From NCBI GenBank assembly GCA_964358615.1, contig CAYHOV010000002.1, forward strand, positions 1-44,076: DNA of 44,076 nucleotides, read 5' to 3'. Within the stretch, counting starts at the first letter, position 1, and each line of letters begins with the position of its first letter. The position numbers and the translations under genes are program-made. Shown in pieces: positions 71 through 40,583 of the stretch. Below the pieces are notes generated by a model, which did no database searches, was not told the origin of the DNA, and worked only from the letters and a program-made list of their open reading frames with translations. This stretch comes from Candidatus Woesearchaeota archaeon. GTDB lineage: Archaea > Nanobdellota > Nanobdellia > Pacearchaeales > GW2011-AR1.

Positions 71-3000
71 TTATGTCATTGACTCATAAAATCCATACCA
101 ATCCAAAACACAAGAATCAACACCCACATTATTTGTCACACTCGCATTGATAATTGTCCAATTGTAATTTTGTATTGTATTATTTTCAGGTGTCGGGCTG
201 ATTAAATTTACCGTCGGAGGAGTTATATCAGTTGCAGTAACAGTATAAGTAATCACGCTTAAATCTGTTGCAGGGAAAGTGATTGTCTTCGAGGTAGTAT
301 TAATTAAAATTTGTGAAGTTATATCAAATGTTCCGCTTGAATTTGTGATATTTGCTTGTATGCCCCAATCATCAGGCACACCATAGTATGAATAATTCGT
401 CCAAGCAGTGATATTTGTAGTTATTGCGCGATAACCCTCTGCTACATAAATATCAGATATAGTTACTGTCCAAACTTTTTTTGCAGATACATTTTCTATA
501 ATATTTTCAGTATCTCTTAATGCATCCCTATATGTATGCCTTATCGTTTCGTTGATTGTAGTTAGTGCAGGTATGATCTCTGTTGTCCACATAATTTGAT
601 TATCAGAGTGTACCATCGCAGTATTTGGAGCTCCTGCTGATACATTATCCGATGCTAATAATTGCCCCGTACTATTGAAAATATAACTGGAATTTGGAAC
701 AATGCTATTTGGGTAGTCTGTCTGAATTTCTGATTTGTACCAGTATTCCAAAACTTCAGGAGTGCTTTGAGTATTGTTGAACCGTATTGTTGCTAATTTT
801 GTTGCATTTAATCTTTGATTTGGTCCTATGTAATATCCTGCATCTAATTGAGTTTCAGCTACTATTAATGTCTGTGTCTCAAAAGGTCGCAAATTATGAA
901 TCTCTATATTTGCGGGCTCATTTGTATAATTATAATATATACTCATTTCTTCATTTATCGCAGATGAACAATTAAGATGCAGATGAAATGATAAATAATC
1001 GTTTTGATCTAATGTTGTGTTTGATGTTATATTTTGTTCTATAAGCGTCGGCGTATTTGCCTCTATTGTCGACTCTGGTCCGCATTTATGGACTAAAGTG
1101 TTAAGATAATAATCTTCTACCTGGATACACAATATTGGTTTACATATTGTATCATTCAATGATAAATTCAAACGCAGGGTTTGTGTACCTATCAAATTAA
1201 TTGTTTTCATCAGAGACCCATTTATTCCTGAACCATAAAAAAATAATGTCAATTGATCTTCACTCATGCCTGCAGAGAGGCTTATATTTCTTGATAGAGT
1301 ATACACACTTCCTGTTGGTGGTTCTTTCCTCAACCAAGTTGTAGAGTAGTTATTAAATAAACTATAAGTTCTATTTTCCCATTCAGATAAATACATAAAT
1401 GCCCAAACGTTTGTCGACGTGCTATTGATGGCATTTACATAATTTGTTTTTGAACATGAGATATTAAATGTAACTATGTTGTACATCAAGTAATTATTTA
1501 TTTGTCCAGAATAATTTCCAGTAGTTGCATTATATGTTAGTTCTGTAACATCGTTAGTTTCATCATTAGTCACATCGCAAGTCGCTCCTGAAATCGGTAG
1601 TCCTGTTGAATTATCAACAAATCTTGCTTGGAATGGGATATAAATGTCATAACCATGATCCAGGCTTCTTCCCTGATGATACATTGTCTGGTTAACGCTG
1701 AATGTCAAGCTCGTCGGTCTCGACTGAACAATAAAACTCTGCAAGTCTGTCTGATTCGCATTTCCAACAGAATCATTCGCCCAGAAGAACCAACTTACAT
1801 TTGTTCCTGCCGTCGCTGTTATCAACGAAATATTCTGCGAAACATTTGTCGTCCCTGTAAATATGGTGTAAGAACTATTCACAAAATTTCCAGTCTGATT
1901 TATCGAGAATATATATCCTGCAAGCTGGGCATTTGTCCAAGTCGCATTGAAATTGACATTCATCCCATTATAAATAACGGTCTCATTTTTCTGTAAATTA
2001 GACCAAGATGGTTTTCCAGTATCTTTATAGAACGTTACCGTCGATGAATTCACATTTCCAGCAGAATCATTCGCCCAGACTCTCCAGGTATTTGATCCTT
2101 CAATTGAAGTTAATCCCGAAACATTCTGTCCGCAAGTTATAGTAGTGTTTGTAACTCCATTATCAAGCGAATACCAACAAGTTTGTGGATTAATATCTAG
2201 TAGAGTATAATTCAAATTCGAGACATTTACATTATAAGTTATATTTTGCGGATAGACTATATTTACTCCTGGATAGATTGTATCAATTGTTATAGTTTTA
2301 TTCGACGTCACAAAATAATTTCCAGCTCGGTCATAGGCTTTCCAGAACCAGGTATAAAATCCGTCGACAAGATTGACAAAAATTCCAAGTCCATATTCCA
2401 ACGGATTTCCGACGATATTTACCGTAGTTTGGTTGTAAAGTCCAGTTGTATTATAGATATTCAAAGTCGCATTTGCCAATCCCAAATTATCACTCAAGTT
2501 AACAGAGAAATTCTGATTAGAGATATTCGTCGCAGTTCCATTTATCGGATTTATTACTGTTGCATTCGGAGCAAATGTGTCGATTGTAACATTCCTAGTC
2601 TCAGTAGAATTACAGTTCAATGCATAATCGCAGGCAGTCGCATTGAAATAATAAACTCCATTAGCCAGCGACGTGAAATTCAAGAAGAGCTGACTTGTTG
2701 AGGTCATAGTCGAATTTACCAATCCAGTAGAATTATACAATCTGATTGTGACATTCGCTAAATTAGTATCATTCACACTAATATTAACAAGAATATTATT
2801 TCTTGTCAAAAGTATTGTTCCAGAAGTTTCACTAGGTAAAGTAAAATTTATTTGCGGAACAGTTGCATCTATATAGACATATCTTATGCTTGTCTGGTTA
2901 GTATTGCCGACAGTATCATTAGTCCATGCATAGAATGTATAATTGCCATCAGCCAGCCCAGTTTTATTTGACCAGTATATATCTCCAACATTATTCTGGA

Positions 3001-6000
3001 ATGATTCATTTGAGCCATTCCAATTTAAGAGGACAGTATCGATATTTGGATCAGATGCAGTTATATTGATGAACACCCAATTTTTATTAGACCAGGTGCT
3101 ATTTGATTGTGTATTTGGATTATAATATATCAAAGGATTTTGCGTATCCAAAGTAAATGTTCTCGAATCAGAATCAAAAGAATCTCCAAAACTATTATTA
3201 CAGCTTACATACCAATCATAATATCCATCTGAAAAATTTTGCTGGAAGTACAGAGTAGTTGAATTTGGAGGCGATTGTGTTGTCTTATTTATTTCTAAAT
3301 TTATCATAAGATTGCAAGAATCAGCCGCCGGACCAGTATAGTTATACGAGAATGTTACATTTGAAGTCAATATCTTTGCTAGATCATCAGGCGAGATTGT
3401 AGTTACCAGGGTCGGACCAGGCTCAGACGAATAAATTTTTATTGTTCTTGTTTCTGTTCTATTGGAATTTCCTGCTTCATCATAGAGTATAAAATAATAT
3501 CCATAATTTCCAGTGTATAGCACACTAGTATTCCCCGCCCAATCCGACGTTGTTCCTGTAAAATTAGCGCTAAAATTTTGCCATGTTCCTGAAAAATTAT
3601 TTGAAAAGATATAATTTGAAAGTTTATAGTTATCCGATACCTGGACCTGGAAACTTACCTCGCTATTATTATAAATTGGATCTGAAAGACTAGCACCATA
3701 GGTGTCATTATCATAACTTGGAGCCTGATTATCTATCCTTACTGGAATTGTCGAATAAAATAAATTATTCGCCGGAGTAGAATTATCATACACATAATAA
3801 TTTATATAATTTATTCCTGTTGCAGCGCCGTTGATTACTGCAGAGATATTCCATACGCTGATTTGATTTGCGCTCCTATTACCTGATTCAAAATTCATCG
3901 TTGCATTTCCAGTGCCATTCAAAAGAGTCAGATCAATCTTCGAGATGTTGATGCCCTCGCCGTTATCTGTAGCATTTACGCGGATTGTTAATGTTTGACT
4001 ATTTCTTATCGACGTAGCATTATTTGGATAAATAACAGAGTAAGTCGCTTTAGGTATGCCGAAAGCTATAGTATAATGTCTTGTTGGAATCGAACTATTG
4101 CAGTTTCCGCTTGTATCACACGGCAAGATCCGAACATCATATCCTTCAGTCGCGTTGCTGAAGCTTGAAGTGTCCCATAAACATTGATAAGGCGAATTTA
4201 TCTGGTCGCAATTCACAAAGTCTGTCCAATTTGATGTTGAATTTTTATACTGGAAAGATGCATAGGCTACATCAACATTGTCCGTAGCTGTTCCGAGGAT
4301 TGTTATGTTGCCATTTATCTGGATATTGTTTGGTGGCGATACAATGCTTCCTGTTGGATATTCATTGTCTATTATCGGTTCAGGATATATATAATATAAC
4401 AGCTCTTTGCAATTTATATTCCCGCTTGTATCATTTGCGCACCATCTGTAACTGTGCGTGGTGTCTGACACAGAGGGTATTGTTCTTACAACAGAAACTA
4501 TCGCTGATTTTGAATTGACAGGAATATATGTTGTATTTCCCCAACTAAAGTTGCCTGCCTTTATTGTGAAATATAAATCTCTTTTTGGTTTTACCCACCA
4601 TAATACGCCGCCAGACCTCATCAGACTGCCTCCGCTATACGGATTTAAAGCAGAATAATATGTCGCATAGGTCCAAGGAGAGGTGCTGGCTGGAGATTTT
4701 AATACTAAGGCATATAACACATTCGGATTGACTGCGATTGTTTTGCTGAAATTTCCGCAGAAAACTGTTTTGGTTGAACTTATCGACGTATTCAATATTG
4801 TAAAGTTTGTAAGCTCTAAACTTGGAGTTCCTTTTGCATTTACACTGTACAAACTTACGATTACATTTCCTTTTTTGCCTCGGTTATTGAATGCCAGTTC
4901 AACACAAGCTTCATATATATTTGTGCTGTTTAAAAATTTGAACTGTTGTCCTATCTTTGTCGTATCGCCAAATGTGTATTTTTTTGGATCAGATGTCTGT
5001 GATACATTACTGCCGTAGACCACGCCAAAATTATCTGTGAACCAAGCAGTATTTACCATTGTATTGTCTGCGACATTTGCAGAAAAATTTATCACTCTGT
5101 TAATAAGCCCATAGGACGAATTTGAAGTTAACTGAGTGATTGAAGGAGCAAAGCCATCATTTATCGTCGCTGTGTAATTTGTCGACGCAAATGAACACTG
5201 CGAAGAACTATCACATGCCCTGCAATTCCAGGAGATTGTCCCAACACTTAAATTTGTCCTGTTAAAACTTGTCTGATTAAAAATTCCAGTTACTGTTGTA
5301 GTTCCATTTGCAAGCCATGTTCCATTTTTATTCCAATAGAATGTGATGTTAACAAGATTATTATCGTCGGTCGCATTGCATGTAAAAGTAATATTATTAT
5401 TCGCACTGACATTCCCATTGTTTGGACTGATGAGAGTTACCGCAGGAGAATTGTCTACAGAAGGCGCACTAGTCGTCGTAGGAATTGGTCTGAATGCAAT
5501 AGAACTACAGTCATAGGTATTAACAGTCGTGGCTGCAGTTATTGAAGCATCACCATAATTACTAAAACTTGAACCATTCCAGCTGAAAGAACCAATCTCC
5601 GAAGTGCTGTCTAATCTTGCACCTAATATTCTTACAGAATCTGTTGAATTTGGATTTCTGTAAAGATTAAGATATCGTCCAGTTCCTACATAACTTGAAA
5701 TTGTCCAGATTGAATTATTGCATTTTGGCGTGCAATTAATCACACTTAGCGTAGTTCCAGCACTATCAGTATCCCAGACAAGTTTTCCTATAGAACCATT
5801 ATTTTCCCACTCAAAATCTCCAGCACGATTTGAGCCATCAGAATCTGAGTCTACATCTGTTACACTCCAGGAAGTTCCATTCCAGAAGATTGTTCTTAGA
5901 TAATTGACAGAATCCATTGCAACACCCTGCAGATAATTTGATGACGGATCTGCTTTTAATGTGACCCATCTTATGGTTTTACCAGGAGCAATATCTCCAA

Positions 6001-7903
6001 TATCAGCTCTTGCCCAAGAATTTCCATTCCAATATGCTCCACTAAGATTCCCGGGGTTAGATATATCTCCTGCAATGACCATTCCCTTTGTGCCGTCAGA
6101 AGTATATCTCACAGCAATGTCCTGATCTGCCCCAGTAGTATCTGTAGCAGCAACCGTAATCTGATTATTCCAAGAACTTCCATTCCAGACCCATGCAATA
6201 TTACGCCCATTAGTGCCATCATGGGCTACAGCAATTATCTCCTTGCTGTTGTTCAATGGATTCCTATCTGCAATAGTCCAACTATATTGCAAGTCCAAAG
6301 CAGAAGTATTATCATCTATACATTTTTCTTCACTAGCAGAAAAGTTAGTGCTGGCATTAAGTAAAACTTGGTATGCTAAATCGCAAGTAGTCGTAGAATT
6401 AAAAACAGAATAAACTAACATAGCATTTCCTGTTGAAGTTTCAAATGCAATATCATATTGTTGCTGACCTGGCGTACCTGCTGCGGCTTTTGCAAGATCA
6501 TTAGTTACCTGCCAGTTGCTTGCATTTGCACAATTTGCAGTGCAAACATATGCATCCAAAAATCCGTCGCTAGCTGTTGAAACAACTAAAACAAGCTTGT
6601 TCAATTGGGGAGACCATTTTAGCACTGCGTATCTCACACCAGTTCCTGCAGTTGGAAGTTCTACCTCACTTCCCCATGATCCCTGTCCTGCAGGATTCCA
6701 TGCTCTGACTTTTGGGCAGTTTACTCCACAGGTACCAGTACTTGAACGATAGGCAATAAAAGCCGAGGCATTGACTGCTAGTTCTGCATCATGTATATAA
6801 TCAAATTCCAAATACGCCGAAGAATTATTTTCAGCATTCACAACTTTTATATCAAAAACATTATTGCTTCCACTCATTCCACCGACAGTGATATCATACT
6901 GTCCTGTCGCTCCAATAACTGCCGTCGAACCAATAATCGTCGAAGAACCATTTTCATAGATATTTACCGACGTGTTCAGACTCTGATTATTCCTCAGATA
7001 AAGATTTATTACATTTCCATTTGTTAAATTACTTTCAAACGTAGCTCGGATATACTGATTGTGATAAATTGGTTCGCTCCAAATTCCATCCTGCGTTTTT
7101 GTCTGATTATAGACATCAGAAATAAATCCACGACTCGAGTTAAGATGTTCTGCCCGAGTGATATTTATTTCTGCAAATCCAGGATCTTCAGGAGTTAAAG
7201 TAAATGAATATTCCTGTCCAGGAGTTATATCCATTAATTTTATCCAAGTTCCAAGACATTCTTGATTTGCAAAATTCCAATCTTTGCACTTGTACAATTC
7301 ATTCCCTTTTGCGACAACAGTCACAGTCGCATCTGTGAAACTCAGGCTTGAAGGATCGATTGCATAGACTTCCACTGAATTCGAAGTTCCTTTGCTTTCA
7401 GGAACATTATCAATTCCCAGTTCGGTTGTTCCGCTTACAACAAGATTTTTCAATTCAATTTTTTTGATCGGTCCTGATTTAGGAGTCACATCCATATCAA
7501 CAATTTCATCATTGCCCTCTTGCTTGCTATTCTTCACAACACTATCAAAATCAACTTTGTCCTTGCTTTCTTTTGAATCTAATTTTCTCGTGCTCTTCGA
7601 GGTAATCACAATAGGAGCATCATCATGTCCTCCGCCCTTATATTTTTTAGTTTGGTTTGATATTTCTCCGACTACCGGCATTGATCCTCCGCTGACATTT
7701 ATCAATGTTTGGAGATCAGAAATATTCATCGAAAGATTATCAGAAATATTCTCAGAAATATTTTCCATTCCATCAAGCACACTGAATCCAGTCATCATCG
7801 GCTCGGCATAAAAAATCAAAGCCACAAGCACAAACATCAATAAAAATTTCAAAAATATTCCATTGCTTAAAATTCCACTAGGTCTATTTTTTCGGCTGCT
7901 CAT
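71..7903 (-). CDS. Giant (2610 aa) cell-surface adhesin-like protein: N-terminal membrane anchor/signal, WNGxSW propeller-like repeats, tandem Ig-like modules, very dense N-x-S/T sequons
   Basis: A single uninterrupted 7.8-kb ORF in an AT-rich genome. Hydrophobic N-terminus (GIFLKFLLMFVLVALIFYA). Repeated WNGSSW / WNGNSW / WNGTSW motifs. Modules shared with the 3497-aa ORF (CWYSLDNG..EGSNTW..NDSAGN; NCRACDSSSQC; LYNSTGLVNS). ATGA overlap with the upstream wHTH gene. Confidence 0.85.
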   Translation of the reverse strand: MSSRKNRPSGILSNGIFLKFLLMFVLVALIFYAEPMMTGFSVLDGMENISENISDNLSMNISDLQTLINVSGGSMPVVGEISNQTKKYKGGGHDDAPIVITSKSTRKLDSKESKDKVDFDSVVKNSKQEGNDEIVDMDVTPKSGPIKKIELKNLVVSGTTELGIDNVPESKGTSNSVEVYAIDPSSLSFTDATVTVVAKGNELYKCKDWNFANQECLGTWIKLMDITPGQEYSFTLTPEDPGFAEINITRAEHLNSSRGFISDVYNQTKTQDGIWSEPIYHNQYIRATFESNLTNGNVINLYLRNNQSLNTSVNIYENGSSTIIGSTAVIGATGQYDITVGGMSGSNNVFDIKVVNAENNSSAYLEFDYIHDAELAVNASAFIAYRSSTGTCGVNCPKVRAWNPAGQGSWGSEVELPTAGTGVRYAVLKWSPQLNKLVLVVSTASDGFLDAYVCTANCANASNWQVTNDLAKAAAGTPGQQQYDIAFETSTGNAMLVYSVFNSTTTCDLAYQVLLNASTNFSASEEKCIDDNTSALDLQYSWTIADRNPLNNSKEIIAVAHDGTNGRNIAWVWNGSSWNNQITVAATDTTGADQDIAVRYTSDGTKGMVIAGDISNPGNLSGAYWNGNSWARADIGDIAPGKTIRWVTLKADPSSNYLQGVAMDSVNYLRTIFWNGTSWSVTDVDSDSDGSNRAGDFEWENNGSIGKLVWDTDSAGTTLSVINCTPKCNNSIWTISSYVGTGRYLNLYRNPNSTDSVRILGARLDSTSEIGSFSWNGSSFSNYGDASITAATTVNTYDCSSIAFRPIPTTTSAPSVDNSPAVTLISPNNGNVSANNNITFTCNATDDNNLVNITFYWNKNGTWLANGTTTVTGIFNQTSFNRTNLSVGTISWNCRACDSSSQCSFASTNYTATINDGFAPSITQLTSNSSYGLINRVINFSANVADNTMVNTAWFTDNFGVVYGSNVSQTSDPKKYTFGDTTKIGQQFKFLNSTNIYEACVELAFNNRGKKGNVIVSLYSVNAKGTPSLELTNFTILNTSISSTKTVFCGNFSKTIAVNPNVLYALVLKSPASTSPWTYATYYSALNPYSGGSLMRSGGVLWWVKPKRDLYFTIKAGNFSWGNTTYIPVNSKSAIVSVVRTIPSVSDTTHSYRWCANDTSGNINCKELLYYIYPEPIIDNEYPTGSIVSPPNNIQINGNITILGTATDNVDVAYASFQYKNSTSNWTDFVNCDQINSPYQCLWDTSSFSNATEGYDVRILPCDTSGNCNSSIPTRHYTIAFGIPKATYSVIYPNNATSIRNSQTLTIRVNATDNGEGINISKIDLTLLNGTGNATMNFESGNRSANQISVWNISAVINGAATGINYINYYVYDNSTPANNLFYSTIPVRIDNQAPSYDNDTYGASLSDPIYNNSEVSFQVQVSDNYKLSNYIFSNNFSGTWQNFSANFTGTTSDWAGNTSVLYTGNYGYYFILYDEAGNSNRTETRTIKIYSSEPGPTLVTTISPDDLAKILTSNVTFSYNYTGPAADSCNLMINLEINKTTQSPPNSTTLYFQQNFSDGYYDWYVSCNNSFGDSFDSDSRTFTLDTQNPLIYYNPNTQSNSTWSNKNWVFINITASDPNIDTVLLNWNGSNESFQNNVGDIYWSNKTGLADGNYTFYAWTNDTVGNTNQTSIRYVYIDATVPQINFTLPSETSGTILLTRNNILVNISVNDTNLANVTIRLYNSTGLVNSTMTSTSQLFLNFTSLANGVYYFNATACDYALNCNSTETRNVTIDTFAPNATVINPINGTATNISNQNFSVNLSDNLGLANATLNIYNTTGLYNQTTVNIVGNPLEYGLGIFVNLVDGFYTWFWKAYDRAGNYFVTSNKTITIDTIYPGVNIVYPQNITYNVNVSNLNYTLLDINPQTCWYSLDNGVTNTTITCGQNVSGLTSIEGSNTWRVWANDSAGNVNSSTVTFYKDTGKPSWSNLQKNETVIYNGMNVNFNATWTNAQLAGYIFSINQTGNFVNSSYTIFTGTTNVSQNISLITATAGTNVSWFFWANDSVGNANQTDLQSFIVQSRPTSLTFSVNQTMYHQGRSLDHGYDIYIPFQARFVDNSTGLPISGATCDVTNDETNDVTELTYNATTGNYSGQINNYLMYNIVTFNISCSKTNYVNAINSTSTNVWAFMYLSEWENRTYSLFNNYSTTWLRKEPPTGSVYTLSRNISLSAGMSEDQLTLFFYGSGINGSLMKTINLIGTQTLRLNLSLNDTICKPILCIQVEDYYLNTLVHKCGPESTIEANTPTLIEQNITSNTTLDQNDYLSFHLHLNCSSAINEEMSIYYNYTNEPANIEIHNLRPFETQTLIVAETQLDAGYYIGPNQRLNATKLATIRFNNTQSTPEVLEYWYKSEIQTDYPNSIVPNSSYIFNSTGQLLASDNVSAGAPNTAMVHSDNQIMWTTEIIPALTTINETIRHTYRDALRDTENIIENVSAKKVWTVTISDIYVAEGYRAITTNITAWTNYSYYGVPDDWGIQANITNSSGTFDITSQILINTTSKTITFPATDLSVITYTVTATDITPPTVNLISPTPENNTIQNYNWTIINASVTNNVGVDSCVLDWYGFYESMT

Positions 7904-10156: not shown

Positions 10157-10687
10157 CTAATGTATTAAAACATAGAATTTTTTGAATTTTACTTTAGAGT
10201 TGATAAAAAATTGGCTAAAAATATGCTCTTGATCAATAGGGATAGTAAAAACTTGGTTAGCCAACCACTCACCAGAGTTCCCTTCAACAATTCCTTTTTC
10301 CTTTCCCTTTCCTCGGAGATTATTGACTACTTTCACTTTTGATGAGGCATCCAACGATGTTAATTCATATTTAAATAAAACTCGGCTGTTAAATCCATGC
10401 AATTCACAAAAATATTTATTATGCCTCAAGCTGTATCCTTCTCTCATTAAAGTATTGATTATCGAAATCGGTTTAAAAAAATCGCTAGACTTGACAATGC
10501 TTACATGAAAACCATCAATATCTGGAAGAATTTCCTTATCCGTTATAAACGCAATATCTATATCCCGGGGCATGGCTTTTCCTTTCATGACAGAACCAAA
10601 TACAATTAAATCTAAAATTTCTTTATCCTTTAGATAATTTGAAAGTTTATTTTTTATTATTGATATGGTCTTTGAGTCCATTTGCAT
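10157..10687 (-). CDS. Minimal nucleotidyltransferase (MNT-type) with a ~90-aa C-terminal extension
   Basis: Pol-beta NTase motif LIVFGSVMKGKAMPRDIDIAF. Overlaps the upstream HEPN gene by 41 nt. Confidence 0.75.
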   Translation of the reverse strand: MQMDSKTISIIKNKLSNYLKDKEILDLIVFGSVMKGKAMPRDIDIAFITDKEILPDIDGFHVSIVKSSDFFKPISIINTLMREGYSLRHNKYFCELHGFNSRVLFKYELTSLDASSKVKVVNNLRGKGKEKGIVEGNSGEWLANQVFTIPIDQEHIFSQFFINSKVKFKKFYVLIH

Positions 10688-11064: not shown

Positions 11065-11592
11065 TTACTCAGTAATTTTCTCTGCATCATAAATCAAAAT
11101 TTCCACTCCGCGCTTCCACTCATCTGCAGAAAGTCCTGCCTTTTCACACAGACTGGATAAAAAATTCTCTGCATCTGGAAGTTGTTCCCAGACCTGCGGC
11201 AGATATGTCGCAGAATGATATCCTTTTTTCAACACAACTCCCCGATTCTTGATTTTATTTTTCAGATCCTCTGAATTTTTATAATCTAATTTTTTGGGTT
11301 CAGTCAGAACAGAAATCTCAATTTTTATTTTTCCCAGCTCATTTTCTTCTAATGGAGGAAATCTAGGGTCATCAAATGCCGCATTCTTAGCATTTTCTAC
11401 AACATCTTTCCAAAGTTCCTGTCGAGCACTTAAGCTTCCAATACACCCTCGCAAATCGCCATTTTCAGTCAATGTAATAAAACACGCTCTTTTATCAGAA
11501 TATTTTTTCTTGAACGCCTCGTTAATGTGCAATTTCTTGCCAGTAAAATGTGTTTCCAGAGTCTGCCTTGCAAGTCTCAATAATTCTTTCAT
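11065..11592 (-). CDS. amrA: AMMECR1-domain protein (AmmeMemoRadiSam system protein A)
   Basis: Hallmark RACFITLTENGDLRGCIGS motif. The start is moved to the internal ATG (MKELLRLA) 1 nt after the amrS stop. Confidence 0.85.
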   Translation of the reverse strand: MKELLRLARQTLETHFTGKKLHINEAFKKKYSDKRACFITLTENGDLRGCIGSLSARQELWKDVVENAKNAAFDDPRFPPLEENELGKIKIEISVLTEPKKLDYKNSEDLKNKIKNRGVVLKKGYHSATYLPQVWEQLPDAENFLSSLCEKAGLSADEWKRGVEILIYDAEKITE

Positions 11593-11593
11593 A

Positions 11594-13813
11594 TTATATA
11601 TTCCCCAGATATACAAAATTTAAATATTTCTTCCCAATTTTATAAGCCCGTTCCAAAGTTTCCTTGGGAGTTATCTCTTTATCAGTCATCTTGTACATCG
11701 GAAAAAGTCTTGAGATATGCCATGGAATATTTTTGTCAACAGATGCGATAAATTTCGCGATCTTCTCAATTTCTTCCGAGCTGTCGTTAATTCCAGGCAC
11801 AATCAGCGTCGTCAATTCAATATGGATTCCTTTTTCATGGGCTCTTTTTATTGTTTCTAAAACCGGTTTAAGTTTCGCGCCGCAATATTTCTGGTGCACT
11901 CGCTCATCAAATCCTTTCAGATCAATATTCATAGCGTCGATAAAAGGTGCAATATAATCAAAACTTTCCTTTGTAAAATATCCATTTGTCACAAGTATGT
12001 TCTTCAATCCTTTTTTCTTCGCAATGACTGCTACATCTTTCACAAACTCGACAAAGATAGCAGGCTCATTGTAAGTATAGGAGATACTTTTACATCCCGT
12101 AGCCATAGCTTTTTCCACAATCTCTGGAGGTAATAATTTCTGTCCAAACACCACTCCTCGCTTCGAGGCCTGTGAGATATCAAAATTTTGGCAGTTTCCG
12201 ACACAAGCAAAATTTGCAAGATAGGAATGATCTTCTTCGACTTCCAGATTATAAACAGAGCCAGAGTACTTCCCGTTTTCTATTTTTCTAACAGGGATAT
12301 AAAAATATTTTTCATCCTCTAGAAATCGAGTATTTTCTCTGTTTTTTTTACTTATTTTTCCTTGTCCATTATAAAATTTATTTCTAAATTGTTCAGCATA
12401 TAATTTTACATAATATAAAGTTGATTGATTTACGATTCTTCCCTCAATTTCTTTTTTAGCAGGAGGATTCCAAACATAATAACAAGGTAAAAAATTAAGT
12501 TTTATCAGCAATGCAAAAAGTCCCAATGCTAAATCTTTTGAGATAGTATTCATACTGATAGGATGATTACTGCCCCTATTCCAACCATCTCCCAGATAAT
12601 AAGATCTCAAAAATTCATTTACAATTTTATTAGAGCAATTAAATAAAAAATAAGGAACTTTTTTATTTTTAGCCCCTGATCCGCAAAGTTTCTCAAAAAG
12701 TAAACCAATAGAAGTGTCTGTTATTCCGATAGAAGTAGAAGTTCTCCTATAAGTTTTATTAAGTTTCAATCCAAAAACATTATAAAACCGTCTAGAAACT
12801 TCTGCCATCATATTTCCTTCGTGTCTTCCAAAAGAAAATTCGATATGATAAGAATTTGGCCTATTCTTCAATTTACTGACGTGCCCTTCAGCACAATAAA
12901 ACCCCAGAAGTGCTGCTAAATCTTTATTTATGTTTAATCTTCTTTTAATTCCTAAATTTTTCTCTCCAACAAATCTAACATACTTTTCCCCTCTAAGTAA
13001 ATGTATTTTTCGATGGAAAAGAGAATCAGGATTCTTCTTTAATTTTGAGAAGAAATTTCTTACATAATTAGGATGCAAATCAAATCGCTTTCCGATTTCC
13101 TTAGAACTGGAACCATTAGCTTTCATCTTGATTAATTTATCAAAGACTAACGAAGTTTTCCTTACAGGAGAACCAACCTCAATACTATGATTTTTTAATA
13201 ATTTTTCAATATCAATATATTTTAATGGATTTTTAACCTCATGAATTTTTGGTACAAGAAGTAAATCGCCTTTTTTTAATTTATCCGCTCTTATTTTTTC
13301 AGTATTATTATTTCTCTTAATAAAAAATTCATGATAGGGAGTACAGATGATCTCCGGTAGATAGTTGGGCTTTATTTTTATAATCGGCCCGCGAGATTTA
13401 TGTTCAAATACATTCTTTATTTTTTTTAGTTCTCCAGTATGTGTTACAACTAAAGGCAAATGTTCTCCTTTTTGAGATATTTCAAACAAATCTTTTATAT
13501 TTATTGTTCCATTATTAGTGAATATACTCGTACTTGGATGAAAACACCAGTCGCACTTGAAATTACATCCCACTGTTCCGAAAGAAAAAGTTTTGCTTCC
13601 AGGCAAAAAATGAAAAAGTGGTTTTTTCTCAATAGGATCGGCGTGCATTCCAGTCACTTGGCCATACACTAGCAAAAAAAGTTCTCCTCCTATATTTTTT
13701 CTGACTCCACAGATTCCAGTTTTTCCCTCGGCAATCAAGCATTTATGACTGCAAGCCAAGCATCTAACCTTACCTTTCTCTTTTTTGAACAATTCACATT
13801 TTTTAATGGCCAT
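11594..13813 (-). CDS. amrS: AmmeMemoRadiSam-system radical SAM enzyme, interrupted by a 451-aa intein
   Basis: N-extein ends ..GTVGCNFKCDW and C-extein starts CQNFDISQ.., so the joined sequence GCNFKCDWCQNFDIS gives the canonical CX3CX2C-QN motif. N-terminal Cys cluster CLACSHKC..GICG. Flanked by AMMECR1 and MEMO genes. Confidence 0.85.
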   Translation of the reverse strand: MAIKKCELFKKEKGKVRCLACSHKCLIAEGKTGICGVRKNIGGELFLLVYGQVTGMHADPIEKKPLFHFLPGSKTFSFGTVGCNFKCDWCFHPSTSIFTNNGTINIKDLFEISQKGEHLPLVVTHTGELKKIKNVFEHKSRGPIIKIKPNYLPEIICTPYHEFFIKRNNNTEKIRADKLKKGDLLLVPKIHEVKNPLKYIDIEKLLKNHSIEVGSPVRKTSLVFDKLIKMKANGSSSKEIGKRFDLHPNYVRNFFSKLKKNPDSLFHRKIHLLRGEKYVRFVGEKNLGIKRRLNINKDLAALLGFYCAEGHVSKLKNRPNSYHIEFSFGRHEGNMMAEVSRRFYNVFGLKLNKTYRRTSTSIGITDTSIGLLFEKLCGSGAKNKKVPYFLFNCSNKIVNEFLRSYYLGDGWNRGSNHPISMNTISKDLALGLFALLIKLNFLPCYYVWNPPAKKEIEGRIVNQSTLYYVKLYAEQFRNKFYNGQGKISKKNRENTRFLEDEKYFYIPVRKIENGKYSGSVYNLEVEEDHSYLANFACVGNCQNFDISQASKRGVVFGQKLLPPEIVEKAMATGCKSISYTYNEPAIFVEFVKDVAVIAKKKGLKNILVTNGYFTKESFDYIAPFIDAMNIDLKGFDERVHQKYCGAKLKPVLETIKRAHEKGIHIELTTLIVPGINDSSEEIEKIAKFIASVDKNIPWHISRLFPMYKMTDKEITPKETLERAYKIGKKYLNFVYLGNI
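12194..13546 (-). mobile_element. Intein (aa 90-540 of amrS) carrying a LAGLIDADG homing-endonuclease domain
   Basis: Block A is CFHPSTSIFTNNG (Cys1) and block B is ICTPYHEF. LAGLIDADG motifs are LAALLGFYCAEGHV and EFLRSYYLGDGW. Blocks F/G are VYNLEVEEDHSYLANFACVGN, followed by Cys+1. I verified the coordinates codon by codon. Confidence 0.85.
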
Positions 13814-14523
13814 CAGAACCTTATCGAAGCATAGCCGACGACACTTTCCCTCTCGCCAGTTATATCTCCTGAATTTTTATACTCAATAAGTTTTGGTCTC
13901 CATTTCTTTATCTTACAGAGTTCCATCAATACCATCAAAGGAAATTGGCCACATGCATCCATTTTTTCAAGTTTAGAAAAATCCAGATCCTCTAAAATTT
14001 TTATCGTCTCCTTATCTTTTTTAACTGCTTTTTCATAGGACAAAAAATGACTCAGATCACTAGATACAATAAAAACTCCCTTGAAATCTTTTATCTTCTC
14101 TGCGATTTCTCTTGCTCCATTCAGATCAATTTGCCCGATCATCAACGGCAAAATTTCTCCAAATCCAAGTCTCTGTAAAAATGGGATTTGATTGTCTATA
14201 GCATGCTCACCAGAAATATCAATTCTCTTGAAACTACTCTCAATAATTTTTATCTTTCCAAAGACTGTTGCCCGCCATCTTTTATCATGAGTTACAGCTC
14301 CTTGAAGAGGAATATAATGCGACGGTGCAAGAATAATCGCTTTCTTTGCTTTCAAATTTTTTAGAAGTAAAAACGCATTTCCAGCAATTTCTCCAGAATA
14401 ATCATAGCCAGCATGAGGTACAACAATTCCGTGTACATCTTCCCGAATATCCAATTTTGCAGAAAAATATTTATCAATAATATTTCCAAGTTCAACCCTA
14501 TCAGAAGTATACCATTGGCCCAT
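13813..14523 (-). CDS. amrB: MEMO1-family protein (AmmeMemoRadiSam system protein B)
   Basis: HGIVVPHAGYDYSGEIAG and SSDLSHF motifs. Its stop overlaps the amrS start by 1 nt. Confidence 0.85.
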   Translation of the reverse strand: MGQWYTSDRVELGNIIDKYFSAKLDIREDVHGIVVPHAGYDYSGEIAGNAFLLLKNLKAKKAIILAPSHYIPLQGAVTHDKRWRATVFGKIKIIESSFKRIDISGEHAIDNQIPFLQRLGFGEILPLMIGQIDLNGAREIAEKIKDFKGVFIVSSDLSHFLSYEKAVKKDKETIKILEDLDFSKLEKMDACGQFPLMVLMELCKIKKWRPKLIEYKNSGDITGERESVVGYASIRF

Positions 14524-21716: not shown

Positions 21717-24700
21717 TTAATCAATTCCAGTATAAGGTTCCCCCAAACTTCCTGTAAAGACTACTGTTGAAAGTTTATTTCCAGCAGGTTCATCTGCAGG
21801 AATTTTTACAAGCAGATCAACAGAGACATTATTGCAACCAGATTGATAACCCGACGTAAAATTCATACGATTTATTGCCCTCGCAGTCAACAACGGAGCA
21901 TCATTCCACGAGACCAATGTTCCCGAATCTACAAAACATCCTGAAGTAGTATTTCTTATCTTAAATTGGAAATAACTGCTAGGATTTGAAGCAGAAGAAA
22001 ATAAGTTAGTAAAATTTACAGAAATATTTGTCTGAACATTACCATCATTCTGCAATACAAAAGGCCGAGGGTCATCTAAGGAGGTATTTTTGCTCTCAGA
22101 TAAATTCATATTCTCAAACAAAATATAATCCGTAGGAAGGCTTATAACAATATTTGATTGTATTGAAATATTTCTCGGAACAGCCCATACTCCATAAACT
22201 TGGCCATCATTCGCCCTCGCAGTCCAATTATAATAATAACCATTATCAATTAAATACTCTAGATAAGCAGGCACAGTGTAGTTCGTAGACGAATTAATAG
22301 TATTGTTTTCATAATATCTATTTCCAAGAGAGCAGGTCCCGCCTCCACTATACAAGCAAGTCAAATTTAATTCATAGCTCAAAGCATCACCATCATCGTC
22401 GCTGCCGCTATAATAAAATGTCGGCGTTCTATTTGTCGTAATATTTCCATCATTTGGAGAAATTAGCGTTACTGTCGGAGGAGTATTTAATATTGTCAGG
22501 TTCCCGCTAAAACCAAAACTCGAATAATCAAGGCCATCAAACAACCTCAGACCGCAGCTCCAATTCTCCCCTTTTGTAGTATTCGCATCATCAAGAACAG
22601 CGATAAACAAACTTCCATTTGCATAACTATTATTATAATCCATCGTCAAATTCAAAGTTCCATTATTATACCATCTGACTGTAACATTCATCTTGTTGAG
22701 ATCTACATCAGTGATATTTGCAAAACAATTCAGATCAGCTTTTGTCCTGTTGCTTCCATCTGTTGAATTTATCGTCACTGCAGGAGTATTTGGTGCGGTA
22801 TTTCCTGCGATTATATCTAATGTTCTTATGTCTGTCATATTCTCTCGAGCATTTGTATCTTTAACATAGGAATAATAAGTATAATCTCCTAAACTTAAAT
22901 TACTTTTATTGACGCTAAACTGCCATTGATCAACATCTGTCCTATGTAAAGAAGAAGAATATAACATCCGGATTTCATCATCTGTCAAGCTTCTATTCCA
23001 AATTCTTAATTCGTCCAAACTTCCATTTATTCCAGCTCCGCCAGTGCCTCCGCCAATATTAAGATTACCCAATGAAGAATTGACAACTCCGGTAAAATTA
23101 TCAGAAGTTCCTTCTACGCCATTCATGAATATCCTCAGGTCAGTTCCATTGTAAGTAGCAACTACATAATTCCAACTATTAAGCGGAACCGCAGAGAAAT
23201 AAGCTTTGTTATTGATATAATGATTGACATAGAAATTTAAAGTACCATCCTCAAAAAAGAAAAGCCCATAGCCATCAGTCCAACTATATACAGAAGTCTT
23301 CATAGCTAAAATACCATACTGAGTAGTAGATCCTACCTTAAACCAAGTAGCCAAAGTCATTTCTCTGCTGATATTCAGCGAAGGAGAATTAGAGATATTA
23401 AAATAAGGGCCGGTATTAACCGAACCAAAGCTATACGCTCCTCGATAATGTCCTCCAGAAATATCAAACGAAATATTACCCGTAGCTGTTGCATCATTAT
23501 TATATTTACTCAAATCTTTTACATAAGTGCTATTCTCACCTAAACTTGAAATATTATCAAAATCCATCATCAGCGCAAGACTCTCGTCGAATAAAGTATA
23601 GTTTGTAGAATTCCAATTGAATATAAATTTATCAATCCCCATTTCAGTTATAGAAACATTGAATATGAAAGATCTATTTGACGTCGTTGTTCCATTTGCG
23701 GGCGTCGGATCACTAAATGAAATAAGGGGATAAGCAGTATCAACAAAAATTCTTCGCGTTTCAGTAGAATTATAATTTCCAAGATTATCATAGGCATCTG
23801 CACTCAGCAGATAAACTCCGTCGCTAAGCCCGCTAAAATTTATAAATAATGGCGAGCTTGTCGAGTTGCTCCAATTTACAAGACTGCCAGTTGAATTGTA
23901 AAGATAAATACTTACATTTTTCAAACTCGACTCAATCGCAGTCACATTCGCTAAAATATAATTTCTATAGACAAAACCAGCACTATCTGTAGGAGTTACA
24001 AAATCTATTTGAGGCGGAGTGAGATCCCGGATAAACCAACGAGTCTCAGTAGTATTTTCATTACCTAAAGAATCTTTTGCCGACGAGAAATAATTATATA
24101 TTCCCTCGTCCAATCCGCTAGTTAAATTTTTAGTCTGATTCACTTGAAGATACCATTGGCTATTATTATATTTTTCCAAATTCATTTGATAATTTTGAAC
24201 AACTTCGTCTTCACTCAAACTTCTATTCCAGATCCTTACTTCATCAATCATTCCGTCCCACCATCCACCAGGCCAATCACCAAGATTTCCTCCAATCCTT
24301 ATGCTGCCAGTATTGGGAATATTTCCAGAATAAGCAGCATCTGTTCCTTTTTTGCCGTTGACATAGATTCTAAGTGTAGTCCCATTGTAAACTCCGACGA
24401 CCTGAGCCCATTCACCAGTATTGATTCCAGCAGATGCTTTCGGACTTCCACTTGAACCGACGTAAAAATATATAGCATCAGCCCAATAAAATCCCCAGCC
24501 ATTCCCCCAACCACTATCAGCATCTCTTCCAATTATAGTCTTATAGACGCTAAAACTATTAGCATAGACCCATGAAGAAACAGTCATCGCAGTCCCGTTA
24601 GTATTATTTACCGAACCTAAATTAATATAGTCTCCATTTCCGTCGAACTCGATCGCTCCGCCGTATTTTCCGCTCTTAGTTGGCTTTGCATTGATGATAG

Positions 24701-27700
24701 TTCCATTCGTCGAGCTAGCTACGTCAACAGCATAGGTCGAATTTTCACCGATAGCAGAATTATTATTGAAATTGAACATTGTCTTCAATGTCGAATCAAA
24801 AATTGTATAGTTCGTCCCATTCCAATTATATTTTACTTCTGCTAAATTTGCTTCTGTTATTGAGACATTAATTTGTACAGTGGTATTTGTCATCGCTGTA
24901 CCATTGGCCGGCGTAGGATCTACAAAATTTATTCCAGGAGGAGTCCCATCTCCTGCTTCTCCATTTAAAGTGATGCTGTTTGTCAATAATTTTGGCGGGA
25001 ATGGCCCGATAGCAGTAGTGAGATTCACCATATACTGGACATAATTTCTAGGCAATAGGCTAGAGATATCAGAATAAGTATTGTTTTTCACGACAATATC
25101 CCACCCGCTTTTATCTGAACAATCAGAAGTTGTACAAGATCTGATAGCGATGCTGATATTATTTATTGTACTATTAAAATCCGCGTCCCAGGAAATATTT
25201 TTCCATGCAACAGCAGTTCCCATATTTTTTACATTCGAATGATAATAACCTTCATACATTGAATTAGTTATAAAAATAAAATGAGAGGTCTGATTAAATT
25301 CTGCTTCAGAGTAATTTCCTAAATTCCAGCCGCTGAAACTGTAATTTGAATCTGCAAATCCGCATGCTCCAGAACTATCGCATGCTCTACAATTCCAGAT
25401 ATATTCAGAATCCTTTACAGAATAATTGCCGACGACATTTTTCATATCAAAACTAAAATTACTCGAGTTGGAAGTTCCTGAAATATTTTTTGTTTCATTC
25501 AAATACCAAGAACCGCCGATATTTGTATACAGAGAAATATTTACAAGATTATTAGTTGAATTAACAGAGCAATTGAGCGTGACATTTCCTAAAAGATTGA
25601 TGGTATGATTGTTATTCTGCGGATAATTTAAAGTCACATTAATTCCAATGACTTCGATAATTTCTTGACTTATTGTCACATTCCACGTCGAAGTCATATT
25701 GCCCACATTCATTCCCGCAGTCAGATTTGCAAAAACAAAAAACTCATAACTATCATTAATGTTTCCTGTAGCATTCACAAAAAAAGTCACAAGCCGTGAT
25801 TCTCCATTGTTCAAAGTAAGATTATATGGATTTTGTGTAATTGTATAAAATGGGGTTTCAGAAGAATTCATTGAAATCAATCCCTTGACAAATACTTGTT
25901 TTATTATTACATAACCGTCTCCTAAATTTATTCCAGATAAATTTGTCTGATTAGCTCCAGTATTATACGAGCCTGCTCCTCCCCCTTGTCCATGGCCAGC
26001 CCATCCTCCTCCGCCGCCTCCTGAATATCCTCCGCCGCCCCCTGCTCCGACATAAGTTCCTGCTCCTCCTCCAAATCCTCCGTCATGCCCACCATTATCT
26101 CCTGCTCCTCCTGCTCCTCCTTCTAAAAAACGTTTTCCTCCACGAGAACTACTGCCGCCGTTAGTTAACCAACCAGCTCCTCCTCCACTATAAACGCCCG
26201 CACCGCCTCCGCTTCCATTAAGACTGCCGACGCCAAACTGGCTGACTGTCCCATTCATTCCCTGAGTAGTATTTTGACCATCTGCATCACTTGTCGTCGA
26301 GTAATCGCCTCCGCCTCCGCCGCCTCCGGCGATGATCAATGGATTATTATTTTTTACTACAAAAGTTCCACCACCCCCGCCAACGCCTCTTGTACCTCCA
26401 GTATTGTTTGTTCCAGCTTGTCCGACTAATATTTGAAGTACTTCCCCCTGGACTAAATAAAAATAACCTTGTATTCTTGCACCTTTTCCTCCGGGATATT
26501 GCGGAGGATTTCTAGCACCTTCAGCTCCATAGACATCAATAAAATAAGTTCCATTTGCAGGAACAGTCCAATTTTGTATTCCATTGCTTACGTCGACAAG
26601 TCCGGATAAAGTTGTCCCAGAATAATTAGAATTGCATAAAGTTTGATTTGGTCCAAGTCTTCCGGATTTATTACAGGTCGTAAATCTATATTCTGTAAAA
26701 TTTGTAGGATCAAGACTTACATTTATCTCTCCGCAATTTCCACCAGAACAAGAAACATTTAAAGTCACATTAAATAGTTTATATCGCGAAACATTTACAT
26801 TTGTCGTCGGATAGATCAAATCCAATCCAATTCTGAGAGAAGTTAAAGTAAAAGTTACATTCGTAGAATTCTCATTTCCACGCGAATCATTACAATATAC
26901 TGTCCAAGTATTTGAACCTTCAACACTATACGCATTTGTAAAATTAGTCCCCATTGCAACAGCACTCGAGTTTGTCAATCCTCCGTCGATAGAATACCAG
27001 CAATAAGCTTTATTCAATTCAATAAAAGTATAATTTAATTCGCTGATGTTATAATAATAGATAGTATTCTGCGGATAGATTATATTCATCGCAGGATAAA
27101 TTACGTCAAGTATCTTCAATGGCAAGAAATCCGTGATTCCGCCTGTAGTGTAATTCGTATCGCAGATGCTGTCTCCATCGACATCAGTGCAATTATCTGA
27201 AAATCCCTGCGAAGAAAGATTTGTCCAGAAATTCCCGCCAAGATAACTTCCATTCACAATACTTGTTCCTGCTGTTTTTGTAGTGTTCCAGAAAGAAGCA
27301 GAACTGGTCGCAGAAATTATTTTATTTATAAATCCAATATAATTATTAAATATTCTATTCGAAGTACTCGATGATAATAAGATAGCATAGCCAGTATTAG
27401 AATAAAATGTGTTTGAAGTGATATTATTTAGATCTCCGGTAGCGATATTTAATCCGTCGCCAGTATTAGAACTGATTGTATTAGCAGTAACAATATGACC
27501 TCCATTAGTGACCATAGTTATTCCATTTCCAGCATTTGAACTAATATTATTTCCAGAAATATTGCTGCCTATTCCCGAGACATAAACTCCAGCACTTCGA
27601 CCATTTGAAATATTATTATTAAAGACAACAGGATTATTTCCAGCTAAACTAAGACCATAACCTCCATTTGAGCCAATAGTATTATTATATATAAAAAGTC

Positions 27701-32703: not shown

Positions 32704-33522
32704 TCAATTGTTTTTCTCTTTTATCCATCTTTCCTGTTGTTCTATTTTTTCCTTTACATAATCAAAGACTCTTTTTGCTCCTTTCAGATCAATTATCTTT
32801 TTTGTACTCTTGGCTTCTTTGGTTTTCCTATAAGAATCATAAATCTCAATCGAGCCATAGATCTTCTTGATTATTTTTCGCAATTCTTTATTATTAAATC
32901 TCTTGCATTTCATCAAACACTCAACAATATAGGCTTCCCTAAGCCGTAGGATTAGGGGATATGCCAGATTTTCAGACAACATCTCTTTATCTTTCTCAGC
33001 CATATCAATCATTTTTTTAATTAACTGGAGTGAAGATAGAGTAGTCTCAAAATGAAATTTTAGATTTTTCTGATTTAATTCAGTTTTTTTGTATTTTTCG
33101 ACCAACTCCTTGTTCAATATCGCTTTTGCTTCCACAATCATGGCCAGCCAGGGAAGAATATTTTCTTTAAGCTGTTCTTCTAATCTCTCCTGCGAGATGA
33201 GAATAATTTTATACTTTCCTCTATCAATTTCAAGGTTAGTACTATTTGTGACTGCCAAAATATCAACATCGCTCTCGATAGTCTGTTCGCCTCGCGCATA
33301 GCTTCCTACAAGATATAGTCCTTTTATCTCAGACAAATATTTAGACAGAAATAAGAAAACATCTCGCTCTAGACTTTTTAGATTATTTGGTTTTCTGACT
33401 AGGATTATTCTGGCCTCTCCATTGATCCATTCCCTCGGCAAAACCACTCCTGCTGAATTTCCTACGCGTACAATAGGCCTTATCAATTCTATTTTTTCCA
33501 TTTTATTTTTATTAGATTGCAA
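32704..33522 (-). CDS. Fusion protein: AbrB/SpoVT-like N-terminal domain, nucleotidyltransferase, helical C-terminal domain
   Basis: IVRVGNSAGVVLPREWINGEARIILV (AbrB-like). LYLVGSYARGEQTIESDVDILAV (NTase G-S..D.D motif). About 150-aa helical tail. The true start may be the internal MEKIELIRP. Confidence 0.65.
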   Translation of the reverse strand: MQSNKNKMEKIELIRPIVRVGNSAGVVLPREWINGEARIILVRKPNNLKSLERDVFLFLSKYLSEIKGLYLVGSYARGEQTIESDVDILAVTNSTNLEIDRGKYKIILISQERLEEQLKENILPWLAMIVEAKAILNKELVEKYKKTELNQKNLKFHFETTLSSLQLIKKMIDMAEKDKEMLSENLAYPLILRLREAYIVECLMKCKRFNNKELRKIIKKIYGSIEIYDSYRKTKEAKSTKKIIDLKGAKRVFDYVKEKIEQQERWIKEKNN

Positions 33523-35064: not shown

Positions 35065-35628
35065 TTATTTACTCAAGAAAACTTTCTTAATTTCAAAATT
35101 TGAAGTTATCTCTTTCATAGCGTCACTAAAAATCTTCTCATGTTCAGGCAATATTTCAATCAGGCCCGGACTCAAAAGCCGACCCTGATTCTCTCTTAAC
35201 AATCCATATTTTCCTTTTTTTCCATTAAGCAGGTAATTAAAGCGTACCTTATCTTTTTTCTTTAATTTTGTGAGAGAATAAAAAATATGCACCCGCGAAA
35301 TCAATCCCATTGACTCTGAAAAATAATTTCCAGATAGCAGACTCTTTCCATAGAATAATATCGATTCTCTCGCAAAATTCCCCTTATCAAACAAAGAATA
35401 AAGATCATAAGATTTTATATGAATCGGCTTATCAAAAAATAATTCTAGTTGCTTTTTTATTTTCTGTGATTCCTCAAGTTGCTGTTTAAGAGTAATTTTT
35501 TTAAAGATTACTGCGATATCAATATCATTAGGTATATTTCCTTCTAATACTGACGAGCCAAATTTAACAATATCAATTACATCGTCGCTATAATTTAATT
35601 CCAACTTTTCCTGCGATTTCTTCTGCAT
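35065..35628 (-). CDS. Minimal nucleotidyltransferase (MNT-type) with a C-terminal extension, paralogue of 10157..10687
   Basis: IVKFGSSVLEGNIPNDIDIAVIF motif. 41-nt overlap with the upstream HEPN gene, identical to the other pair. Confidence 0.75.
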   Translation of the reverse strand: MQKKSQEKLELNYSDDVIDIVKFGSSVLEGNIPNDIDIAVIFKKITLKQQLEESQKIKKQLELFFDKPIHIKSYDLYSLFDKGNFARESILFYGKSLLSGNYFSESMGLISRVHIFYSLTKLKKKDKVRFNYLLNGKKGKYGLLRENQGRLLSPGLIEILPEHEKIFSDAMKEITSNFEIKKVFLSK

Positions 35629-40580: not shown

Positions 40581-40583
40581 ATA

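Follow-up and report, generated by a model that had tools for sequence, protein, structure and literature searches.

A probable class-1 LAGLIDADG intein between the cluster-ligating cysteines of the radical SAM enzyme AmrS in a Woesearchaeota archaeon

The intein of Pyrococcus abyssi MoaA (Pab MoaA) is described, in two summaries of the work of Callahan et al. 2011, as a reversible redox trap formed by a cysteine at position −3 and the intein Cys1 (PMC3922620; PMC10663303). In this study, we describe an element resembling it in the window, by which we mean the whole 44,076-nucleotide (nt) stretch of Candidatus Woesearchaeota archaeon DNA that was analyzed (contig CAYHOV010000002.1, positions 1 to 44,076), where a gene on the minus strand encodes AmrS, the radical S-adenosylmethionine (SAM) enzyme of the AmmeMemoRadiSam system, with an insert of 451 amino acids (aa) in the CX3CX2C motif that ligates the [4Fe-4S] cluster. 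As in Pab MoaA, so far as the summaries describe it, the host is a radical SAM enzyme with an oxygen-labile Fe-S cluster, a CxxC spans the N-terminal splice junction (N-junction), and splicing would be needed for an active enzyme. The two differ in host family, and disulfide control has been demonstrated in MoaA, whereas the AmrS case is known from sequence; the site of the MoaA intein, as summarized, may be the third cysteine of CX3CX2C or another cysteine motif.

Radical SAM hosts are also represented by exception models in NCBIfam, namely NF045703 for the intein-containing tetraether lipid synthase Tes and NF038136 for the intein-containing Rv2578c family radical SAM, whereas there is no curated intein-containing model for AmrS. 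Tes, like the window protein, is a radical SAM intein host, and its profile NF045703 matches residues 128-606 of the AmrS precursor colinearly, from the intein through the C-terminal splice junction (C-junction) into the radical SAM core; in relatives such as P0019, the match begins at the cluster motif. This colinear match appears consistent with an equivalent insertion point. The scores are, however, far under the cut-offs of the two families (58 vs 1700 bits), and the window protein is therefore neither Tes nor Rv2578c. The best matches to the intein itself, in sequence as well as in structure, were PI-PkoII (Thermococcus kodakarensis Pol-2, PDB 2cw7) and the TliVMA and PhoVMA inteins (7qsu, 7qss, 7qst), which share with it the architecture of a Hint domain plus a double-motif LAGLIDADG endonuclease but differ in their hosts, DNA polymerase and V-ATPase, with an identity of 15-18%. 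A literature search, which is weak evidence with most subscription journals outside its coverage, returned no paper on AmrS inteins, nor any on inteins within radical SAM 4Fe-4S motifs beyond MoaA.

We conclude, with a probability of about 0.88, that the AmrS precursor carries at residues 90-540 a genuine class-1 intein, itself equipped with a double-motif LAGLIDADG homing endonuclease, in the CX3CX2C cluster loop. Within the radical SAM fold this is the beta1-alpha1 loop, and the intein is placed between the second and third cysteines of the motif. The precursor is organized as follows.

11594..13813, minus strand: AmrS precursor open reading frame (ORF) interrupted by the intein; 739 aa plus stop; TIGR04337 277.3 bits, cut-off 220
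13547..13813, minus strand: N-extein, aa 1-89, with an N-terminal Cys cluster (C18, C21, C25, C35) and the first two radical SAM cysteines
13565..13567 and 13553..13555, minus strand: radical SAM cysteines C83 and C87, respectively, in the N-extein
12194..13546, minus strand: intein, residues 90-540, 451 aa; class 1 with LAGLIDADG endonuclease
11597..12193, minus strand: C-extein, aa 541-739, the remainder of the protein, forming the radical SAM barrel
12191..12193, minus strand: Cys541, first C-extein residue, +1 nucleophile and third [4Fe-4S] ligand

In the ORF translation, the N-junction reads GCNFKCDW/CFHPSTS and the C-junction ANFACVGN/CQNFDISQ (slashes mark the splice points), with CFHPSTS beginning at precursor residue 90 and CVGN finishing at residue 540. 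The coordinates 12194-13546 and the length of 451 aa, which had been given in a first-pass annotation made from the sequence alone, are thus exact, and the junctions read as it had proposed, with the third cluster cysteine as the +1 residue and the intein Cys1 occupying its place in the precursor. In-silico splicing yielded a joined extein of 288 aa that reads GCNFKCDWCQNFDISQ, with a computed mass of 32.5 kDa, and an intein of 52.3 kDa with an isoelectric point (pI) of 9.8. In a profile comparison of the kind that had been suggested, the insert exceeded the cut-offs of Pfam Intein_splicing PF14890 (E 1.3e-18, 67.7 bits vs a cut-off of 35.8, covering insert residues 9-446), Pfam LAGLIDADG_3 PF14528 (E 1.8e-7, 31.8 bits vs 22.5), NCBIfam TIGR01445 intein_Nterm (37.9 bits vs 24.5, insert residues 1-76), and NCBIfam TIGR01443 intein_Cterm (20.8 bits vs 15.6, insert residues 431-451), and these matches far exceed chance. 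The AmrS model TIGR04337 matched the precursor in two pieces with 277.3 bits, and removal of the 451 aa resulted in a single continuous match of 298.3 bits over model positions 7-286. The nearest solved structure by sequence was PI-PkoII (E 3.8e-20), followed by the Methanocaldococcus jannaschii KlbA intein and VMA inteins. The insert bears Cys90 at position 1, T-x-x-H in block B, and Asn540/Cys541 at its end, as class-1 inteins do, and its profile scores over thresholds, its Hint fold, the continuity of the host after its removal, and the existence of intein-free alleles agree with that class; the penultimate His and the block F Asp, which are common but not universal in the class, are replaced by Gly539 and Asn522.

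The conserved elements of the intein were assigned to the following positions of the window.

13508..13546, minus strand: block A, CFHPSTSIFTNNG; Cys1 (13544..13546) as first splice nucleophile, at the place of the third cluster Cys
13319..13354, minus strand: block B, EIICTPYHEFFI, with T-x-x-H (T158-P-Y-H161 of the precursor)
13034..13144, minus strand: three-helix, helix-turn-helix (HTH)-like insert, FDKLIKMKANGSSSKEIGKRFDLHPNYVRNFFSKLKK; intein residues 135-171, precursor residues 224-260
12884..12919, minus strand: LAGLIDADG motif 1, LAALLGFYCAEG, with the catalytic Glu; E220 and G221 invariant
12584..12613, minus strand: LAGLIDADG motif 2, FLRSYYLGDG, with the catalytic Asp; D320 and G321 invariant
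12215..12256, minus strand: block F, VYNLEVEEDHSYLA; Asn in place of the usual Asp, His conserved
12194..12214, minus strand: block G, NFACVGN; terminal Asn540, penultimate Gly539 (TIGR01443)

Alignment of the intein with 22 full-length relatives indicated that Cys1 is present in all 23 sequences. In a 13-sequence summary of the alignment (the intein and 12 relatives), Cys1, the block B His (H72), the terminal Asn, the LAGLIDADG residues E220 and D320, and Lys K295 were invariant, and the block B Thr (T69) was nearly so (at least 90%). Block F, which reads VYNLEV with Asn where Asp is usual, has retained its His (in DHSY). In each LAGLIDADG motif, an acidic residue is followed by Gly, as is characteristic of double-motif enzymes, and the earlier identification of both motifs, LAALLGFYCAEG and FLRSYYLGDG, is borne out by the Pfam LAGLIDADG_3 score and by fold matches. 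These matches were obtained with an AlphaFold2 model of the entire precursor, for which 48 aligned sequences were used as input. The mean predicted local distance difference test (pLDDT) score was 90.3, and values below 50 were confined to residues 83-86 and 544-551, which are the two halves of the split cluster loop. In a Foldseek comparison with the PDB, the intein part matched PI-PkoII (1.2e-25), the TliVMA intein (target TM-score (TMt) 0.77), the PhoVMA intein, PI-PfuI, and PI-SceI, with E values from 1e-25 to 1e-11 across these intein structures, and also I-DmoI, I-SceI, and I-Tsp061I, consistent with an endonuclease fold; the extein part matched pyruvate formate-lyase activating enzyme (PFL-AE 3c8f, TMt 0.66), NifB, viperin, and RlmN. 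The HTH-like insert sits between the Hint N-lobe and the endonuclease and consists in the model of helices at residues 224-232, 237-243, and 248-260. Most relatives retain it, whereas a precise deletion has removed it from several (P0009, P0022-24, P0026). A Pfam scan of the insert gave sub-threshold HTH matches only, and we presume it to be an accessory DNA-binding module.

The identity of the host was examined by searching a protein database with the spliced sequence, which has 7999 relatives at E <=1e-30. The best 120 of these, in none of which the insert was found, are 273-315 aa long (median 286) and 66-75% identical to the spliced sequence, with alignments covering 95-100% of the query and 99-100% in nearly all cases. 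Those among them that are named are AmrS of Candidatus Pacearchaeota, and the motif in the 120 is CNF[KR]Cxx CQN[FWY][DE]ISQ; four of these intein-free orthologues carry the exact CNFKCDWCQNFDISQ, the joined GCNFKCDWCQNFDISQ and the motif CNFKCDWCQN likewise recur letter for letter in four, and the insertion point is confirmed by the orthologue alignment that had been suggested as a check. TIGR04337 gives more than 220 bits for both the interrupted and the spliced form, and splicing restores CX3CX2C followed by QN, as expected of AmrS. The closest intein-free orthologue (P0082, 75% identity, on contig L120) has the empty site GGCTGCAATTTTAAATGCCTCTGG/TGCCAAAATTACGACATTTCGCAG, and the L120 DNA across it is identical to the joined window sequence at 37 of 48 positions. 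At 286-288 aa, AmrS of this clade is short and reaches position 286 of the 349 in the TIGR04337 model. The 739-aa protein is best regarded as a 288-aa AmrS plus a 451-aa homing intein and no novel fusion enzyme, and the value of the window gene lies chiefly in its annotation as such.

The placement of the host in an AMMECR1/MEMO/radical SAM operon was likewise correct in the first-pass annotation, since the flanking genes match TIGR04336 and TIGR04335 as amrS itself matches TIGR04337.

13813..14523, minus strand: AmmeMemoRadiSam system protein B, MEMO-like; TIGR04336 169.4 bits; its stop overlaps the amrS start (window 13811..13815)
11065..11616, minus strand: AmmeMemoRadiSam system protein A, AMMECR1-like; TIGR04335 202.5 bits; 23-nt overlap with the amrS 3' end (11594..11616)

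The overlaps of amrS with the AMMECR1 gene and the MEMO stop suggest translational coupling, and the 23-nt overlap with the AMMECR1 gene is also present in L120. The function of the AMMECR1/MEMO/AmrS system is brought no closer to solution by these findings.

Splicing is proposed to follow the standard class-1 route, as known for the family. The Hint domain (blocks A, B, F, and G) would unite the two junctions, whereupon Cys90 would carry out an N-S acyl shift at Trp89-Cys90, and the resulting thioester would be attacked by Cys541 in a trans-thioesterification. Asn540 would then cyclize, aided by the block F His and other residues without a penultimate His, and an S-N shift would restore a Trp-Cys peptide bond. 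The expected products are the 288-aa AmrS (32.5 kDa) containing CNFKCDWCQN and a free, basic endonuclease of 52 kDa. The intact 739-codon frame and the translationally coupled partners lead us to infer that the intein is splicing-competent. Because Cys541 would serve as a nucleophile before it serves as an iron ligand, and lies 451 aa away from C83 and C87 in the precursor, the canonical [4Fe-4S]/SAM site is expected only after splicing, and it is reasonable to suppose that enzyme activity depends on it. Cluster-ligating cysteines that double as splice nucleophiles provide numerous natural cases in which to test the order of splicing and Fe-S cluster insertion.

With respect to mobility, the expected target of the endonuclease is the conserved motif DNA of intein-free amrS (...TGC GAC TGG/TGC CAA AAT...), at which it would cut and so spread by homing. 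The GC content at third codon positions (GC3) was 0.197 for the intein and 0.367 for the extein, and the intein value lies below those of all 23 other window ORFs (0.26-0.39), which marks it by composition as a foreign or weakly selected element. In P0001, which has the nearest intein, the intein is 56% and the extein 66% identical, whereas in comparisons with PflX-like hosts conservation is higher for the intein (36-38%) than for the extein (27-35%). Furthermore, a 151-nt contig from run X4 runs from one extein flank straight into the other, with no intein between them and about 92% identity, mapping to window 12169..12193 and 13602..13633, with 55 diverged letters standing for 13547..13601; as a single contig of depth 2.3, it suggests that a related organism in the same groundwater sample has an amrS allele without the intein. 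The sporadic distribution, with the intein absent from the best 120 orthologues, the deviant GC3, the greater conservation of intein than extein across hosts, and the empty allele suggested by X4 are indirect signs of mobility, and the intein is probably still mobile.

To define the distribution of the intein, we used intein-only and pattern searches. The former detected about 31 proteins with a homologous intein (30-56% identity), in which every readable N- or C-junction is at the same site. The latter, a scan over one genome per GTDB species with a degenerate DNA pattern for the C-junction (H-[ST]-Y-x-A-x6-N/C-Q-N), detected at least 119 loci, of which at least 110 are true intein C-junctions and represent further same-site copies with intact junction reading frames. 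The 110 true C-junctions listed comprise 54 from archaeal and 56 from bacterial metagenome-assembled genomes (MAGs). Among the matches listed, the archaeal carriers are Asgard, Micrarchaeota, Iainarchaeota, Woesearchaeota, Nitrososphaerales, Thermoproteota, Thermoplasmata, and Methanomassiliicoccales, and the bacterial carriers are Chloroflexota, Rokubacteria, Methylomirabilota, Bipolaricaulota, Actinomycetota, Acidobacteriota, Planctomycetota, Armatimonadota, Gammaproteobacteria, and the candidate phyla radiation (CPR). The suggested survey for empty and occupied alleles, therefore, finds both, the former in L120 and the best 120 orthologues and the latter in these copies. In the 70 listed copies with both junctions readable, full-length inteins (359-547 aa) number 54 and mini-inteins (154-196 aa) 15, and a single copy measures 267 aa; the occurrence of mini-inteins beside full-length copies is the usual cycle of endonuclease loss.

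A phmmer search of 1.84 billion representatives gave 5558 hits (71 at E <=1e-30). The N-junction could be read in 124 of these, and in half of them (62) the intein directly follows the CX3CX2 or CX4CX2 of a radical SAM motif. The hosts of same-site inteins include AmrS, a PflX-like family failing TIGR04337, B12-binding HpnJ/BchE-like proteins, and PA0069/Rv2578c proteins, and homologues of the window intein before the third cysteine of non-AmrS radical SAM families include P0236, P0240, P0245, P0247, P0254, P0258, P0261, P0265, P0307, and others. Those in PflX-like, B12-binding, and PA0069/Rv2578c-like hosts are 27-45% identical to the AmrS intein and, like it, have Cys1 in the place of the third cysteine and, wherever the C-junction was also read, the third cysteine as +1; they differ from it in their exteins, and many keep the penultimate His, unlike the window intein. 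Many copies are present in public databases, some annotated by NCBI as AmrS or LAGLIDADG endonuclease. The rarity implied by the first-pass annotation is consequently not upheld, given that at least 110 species-representative genomes and several radical SAM families have this lineage at this site and that curated models already exist. Taken together, the AmrS intein is an ordinary member of a large lineage specialized on the third-cysteine position of radical SAM motifs, and the radical SAM cluster loop is a superfamily-wide intein hot spot, recurrent in both prokaryotic domains.

Several points weigh against the reading of the insert as a functional, mobile intein whose splicing precedes cluster assembly. 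Missing from it are two residues that assist catalysis in model inteins, the penultimate His and the block F Asp, although this point counts for less given that the whole lineage shares both departures. The low GC3 could reflect weak codon selection and not recent transfer. In addition, the precursor still spells a formal CX3CX2C with C83, C87, and the intein C90, and we therefore infer, and do not assert, that no cluster forms before splicing. Finally, splicing, DNA cleavage, and the order of splicing and cluster assembly are deduced from anatomy, homology, predicted fold, and relatives.

An extension of this reading that deserves weighing is that splicing is conditional. A disulfide between C87 and Cys1, or iron or a cluster held on C83/C87/C90, would block the first splicing step until reducing conditions or the right cluster supply release it, so that an oxygen-labile enzyme would be switched on post-translationally by way of its intein. 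C87-D-W-C90 forms a CxxC across the N-junction, with the Cys-3/Cys1 pair that characterizes redox-trap inteins, and this geometry is that of engineered traps and of the natural trap in Pab MoaA, as these are summarized (PMC3922620; PMC10663303); by analogy with the latter, redox or metal gating of AmrS intein splicing seems plausible. Moreover, no same-site N-junction that could be read lacks Cys1, and the cluster loop is the sole low-confidence part of the precursor model. On the other hand, inteins most commonly use Cys1 and Cys+1 as nucleophiles in any case, and the host motif dictates Cys-3 and Cys+1, so that the insertion site by itself entails this arrangement; selfish homing alone explains why that site is chosen. 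The trap may also rarely close in a groundwater organism that is probably an anaerobe. We consider gating possible, but on balance doubtful. A broader version, in which one lineage is specialized superfamily-wide on the third cysteine, in AmrS, PflX-like, B12-binding, and Rv2578c-like hosts, with Cys1 as stand-in ligand or disulfide partner, splicing gated, and the unusual catalytic set, which has a block F Asn and no penultimate His, adapted to gating, seems to us unlikely. If gating were true, the activation of oxygen-labile radical SAM enzymes would be under the control of redox state or Fe-S supply, and the many same-site inteins make it possible to ask whether the Cys-3/Cys1 redox trapping of Pab MoaA is general.

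Natural inteins with a penultimate Gly or Phe are reported to splice, examples of non-His inteins being those of M. jannaschii phosphoenolpyruvate (PEP) synthase and RNA polymerase A' and of Chlamydomonas ClpP. The window intein resembles them in having a residue other than His (Gly or Phe in those cases) before the terminal Asn, but in its lineage the trait is found in about 89% of the 110 listed copies and is coupled to an Asn at the block F Asp position. The penultimate residue in the 110 listed same-site copies is Ser in 37, Ala in 27, Gly in 18, His in 12, Lys in 10, Cys in 5, and Arg in 1, that is, other than His in 98, and block F has Y/F-N in 109. The first-pass annotation had, therefore, read the Gly539-Asn540 ending correctly, but not its oddity, and since a non-His penultimate residue is found lineage-wide, Gly-Asn is no sign of decay. 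These counts bear directly on the alternative that the intein has decayed, with splicing lost and the amrS copy effectively a pseudogene or giving cleavage products only, for which Gly539 instead of His and Asn522 instead of the block F Asp could be cited. The same two substitutions occur in about 90-99% of the 110 listed homologues in both prokaryotic domains, which marks them as a functional lineage trait, and a decayed copy would hardly be expected to retain an intact 739-codon frame in a 35% GC genome, all the other catalytic residues, and intact, translationally coupled operon partners. We consider decay very unlikely. The Gly-Asn ending is a lineage trait and no lesion of the window copy, and the catalytic departures of the lineage set it apart from textbook inteins, yet are conserved.

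The reading of the insert as a native AmrS domain or an assembly chimera, in favor of which no point was found, is practically dismissed, the former by Hint blocks A, B, F, and G, LAGLIDADG profile hidden Markov models over cut-offs, a fold like that of solved intein endonucleases, and best 120 orthologues that align gaplessly across the site, and the latter by independent Logan contigs from groundwater metagenome runs X1 and X2, which cross both junctions with 0 mismatches.

The most striking by-product of the analysis is a set of 12 related loci in Thermoplasmata/Methanomassiliicoccales MAGs (L012, L014, L023, L024, L029, L037, L054, L059, L087, L110, L111, and L112) with two inteins in the same AmrS motif, three extein residues apart. 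The junctions read GCNWL/CHPAGT...VVHN/C-R-Y/CFLPGT...AVAN/CQN, which would make a +1 nucleophile of both the second and the third cluster cysteine. Upstream lies a mini-intein of about 175-200 aa, or in L012 a larger element with an extra nuclease-like insert, and this upstream element matches the intein parts of the NCBIfam intein-containing models; sister genomes (L027, L056, and L085) have the downstream intein only. Four same-site copies that had appeared to lack Cys1 are explained as such tandem inteins. To our knowledge, there is no described case with so short a middle extein.

The window also contains genes for ribosomal protein S8e, TFIIB/TFB, and a Gins51-like protein, which, like the tRNA and the giant ORFs described next, are in keeping with a DPANN archaeon. 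A 115-nt segment at 40467..40581 on the plus strand matches the Rfam tRNA model (45.2 bits) and is absent from the ARAGORN output; it is probably an intron-containing archaeal tRNA. Two giant ORFs on the minus strand, 71..7903 (2610 aa) and 21717..32210 (3497 aa), contain Big_7, Big_13, Laminin_G_3, and beta-helix domains, and giant ORFs with such immunoglobulin (Ig)-like, Laminin_G_3, and beta-helix domains are typical of the large surface proteins of DPANN archaea. At 33652..35058 on the plus strand, a 468-aa ORF ends in a C-terminal Peptidase_S74 domain (endosialidase/tail-fibre intramolecular chaperone) and is thus phage-tail-fibre-like on an archaeal contig. Small ORFs with a nucleotidyltransferase fold (Polbeta/NTP_transf_2) are present at 10157..10687, 32704..33522, and 35065..35628, all on the minus strand, and these three may be toxin-antitoxin-type modules. 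The window locus itself occurs in groundwater metagenomes.

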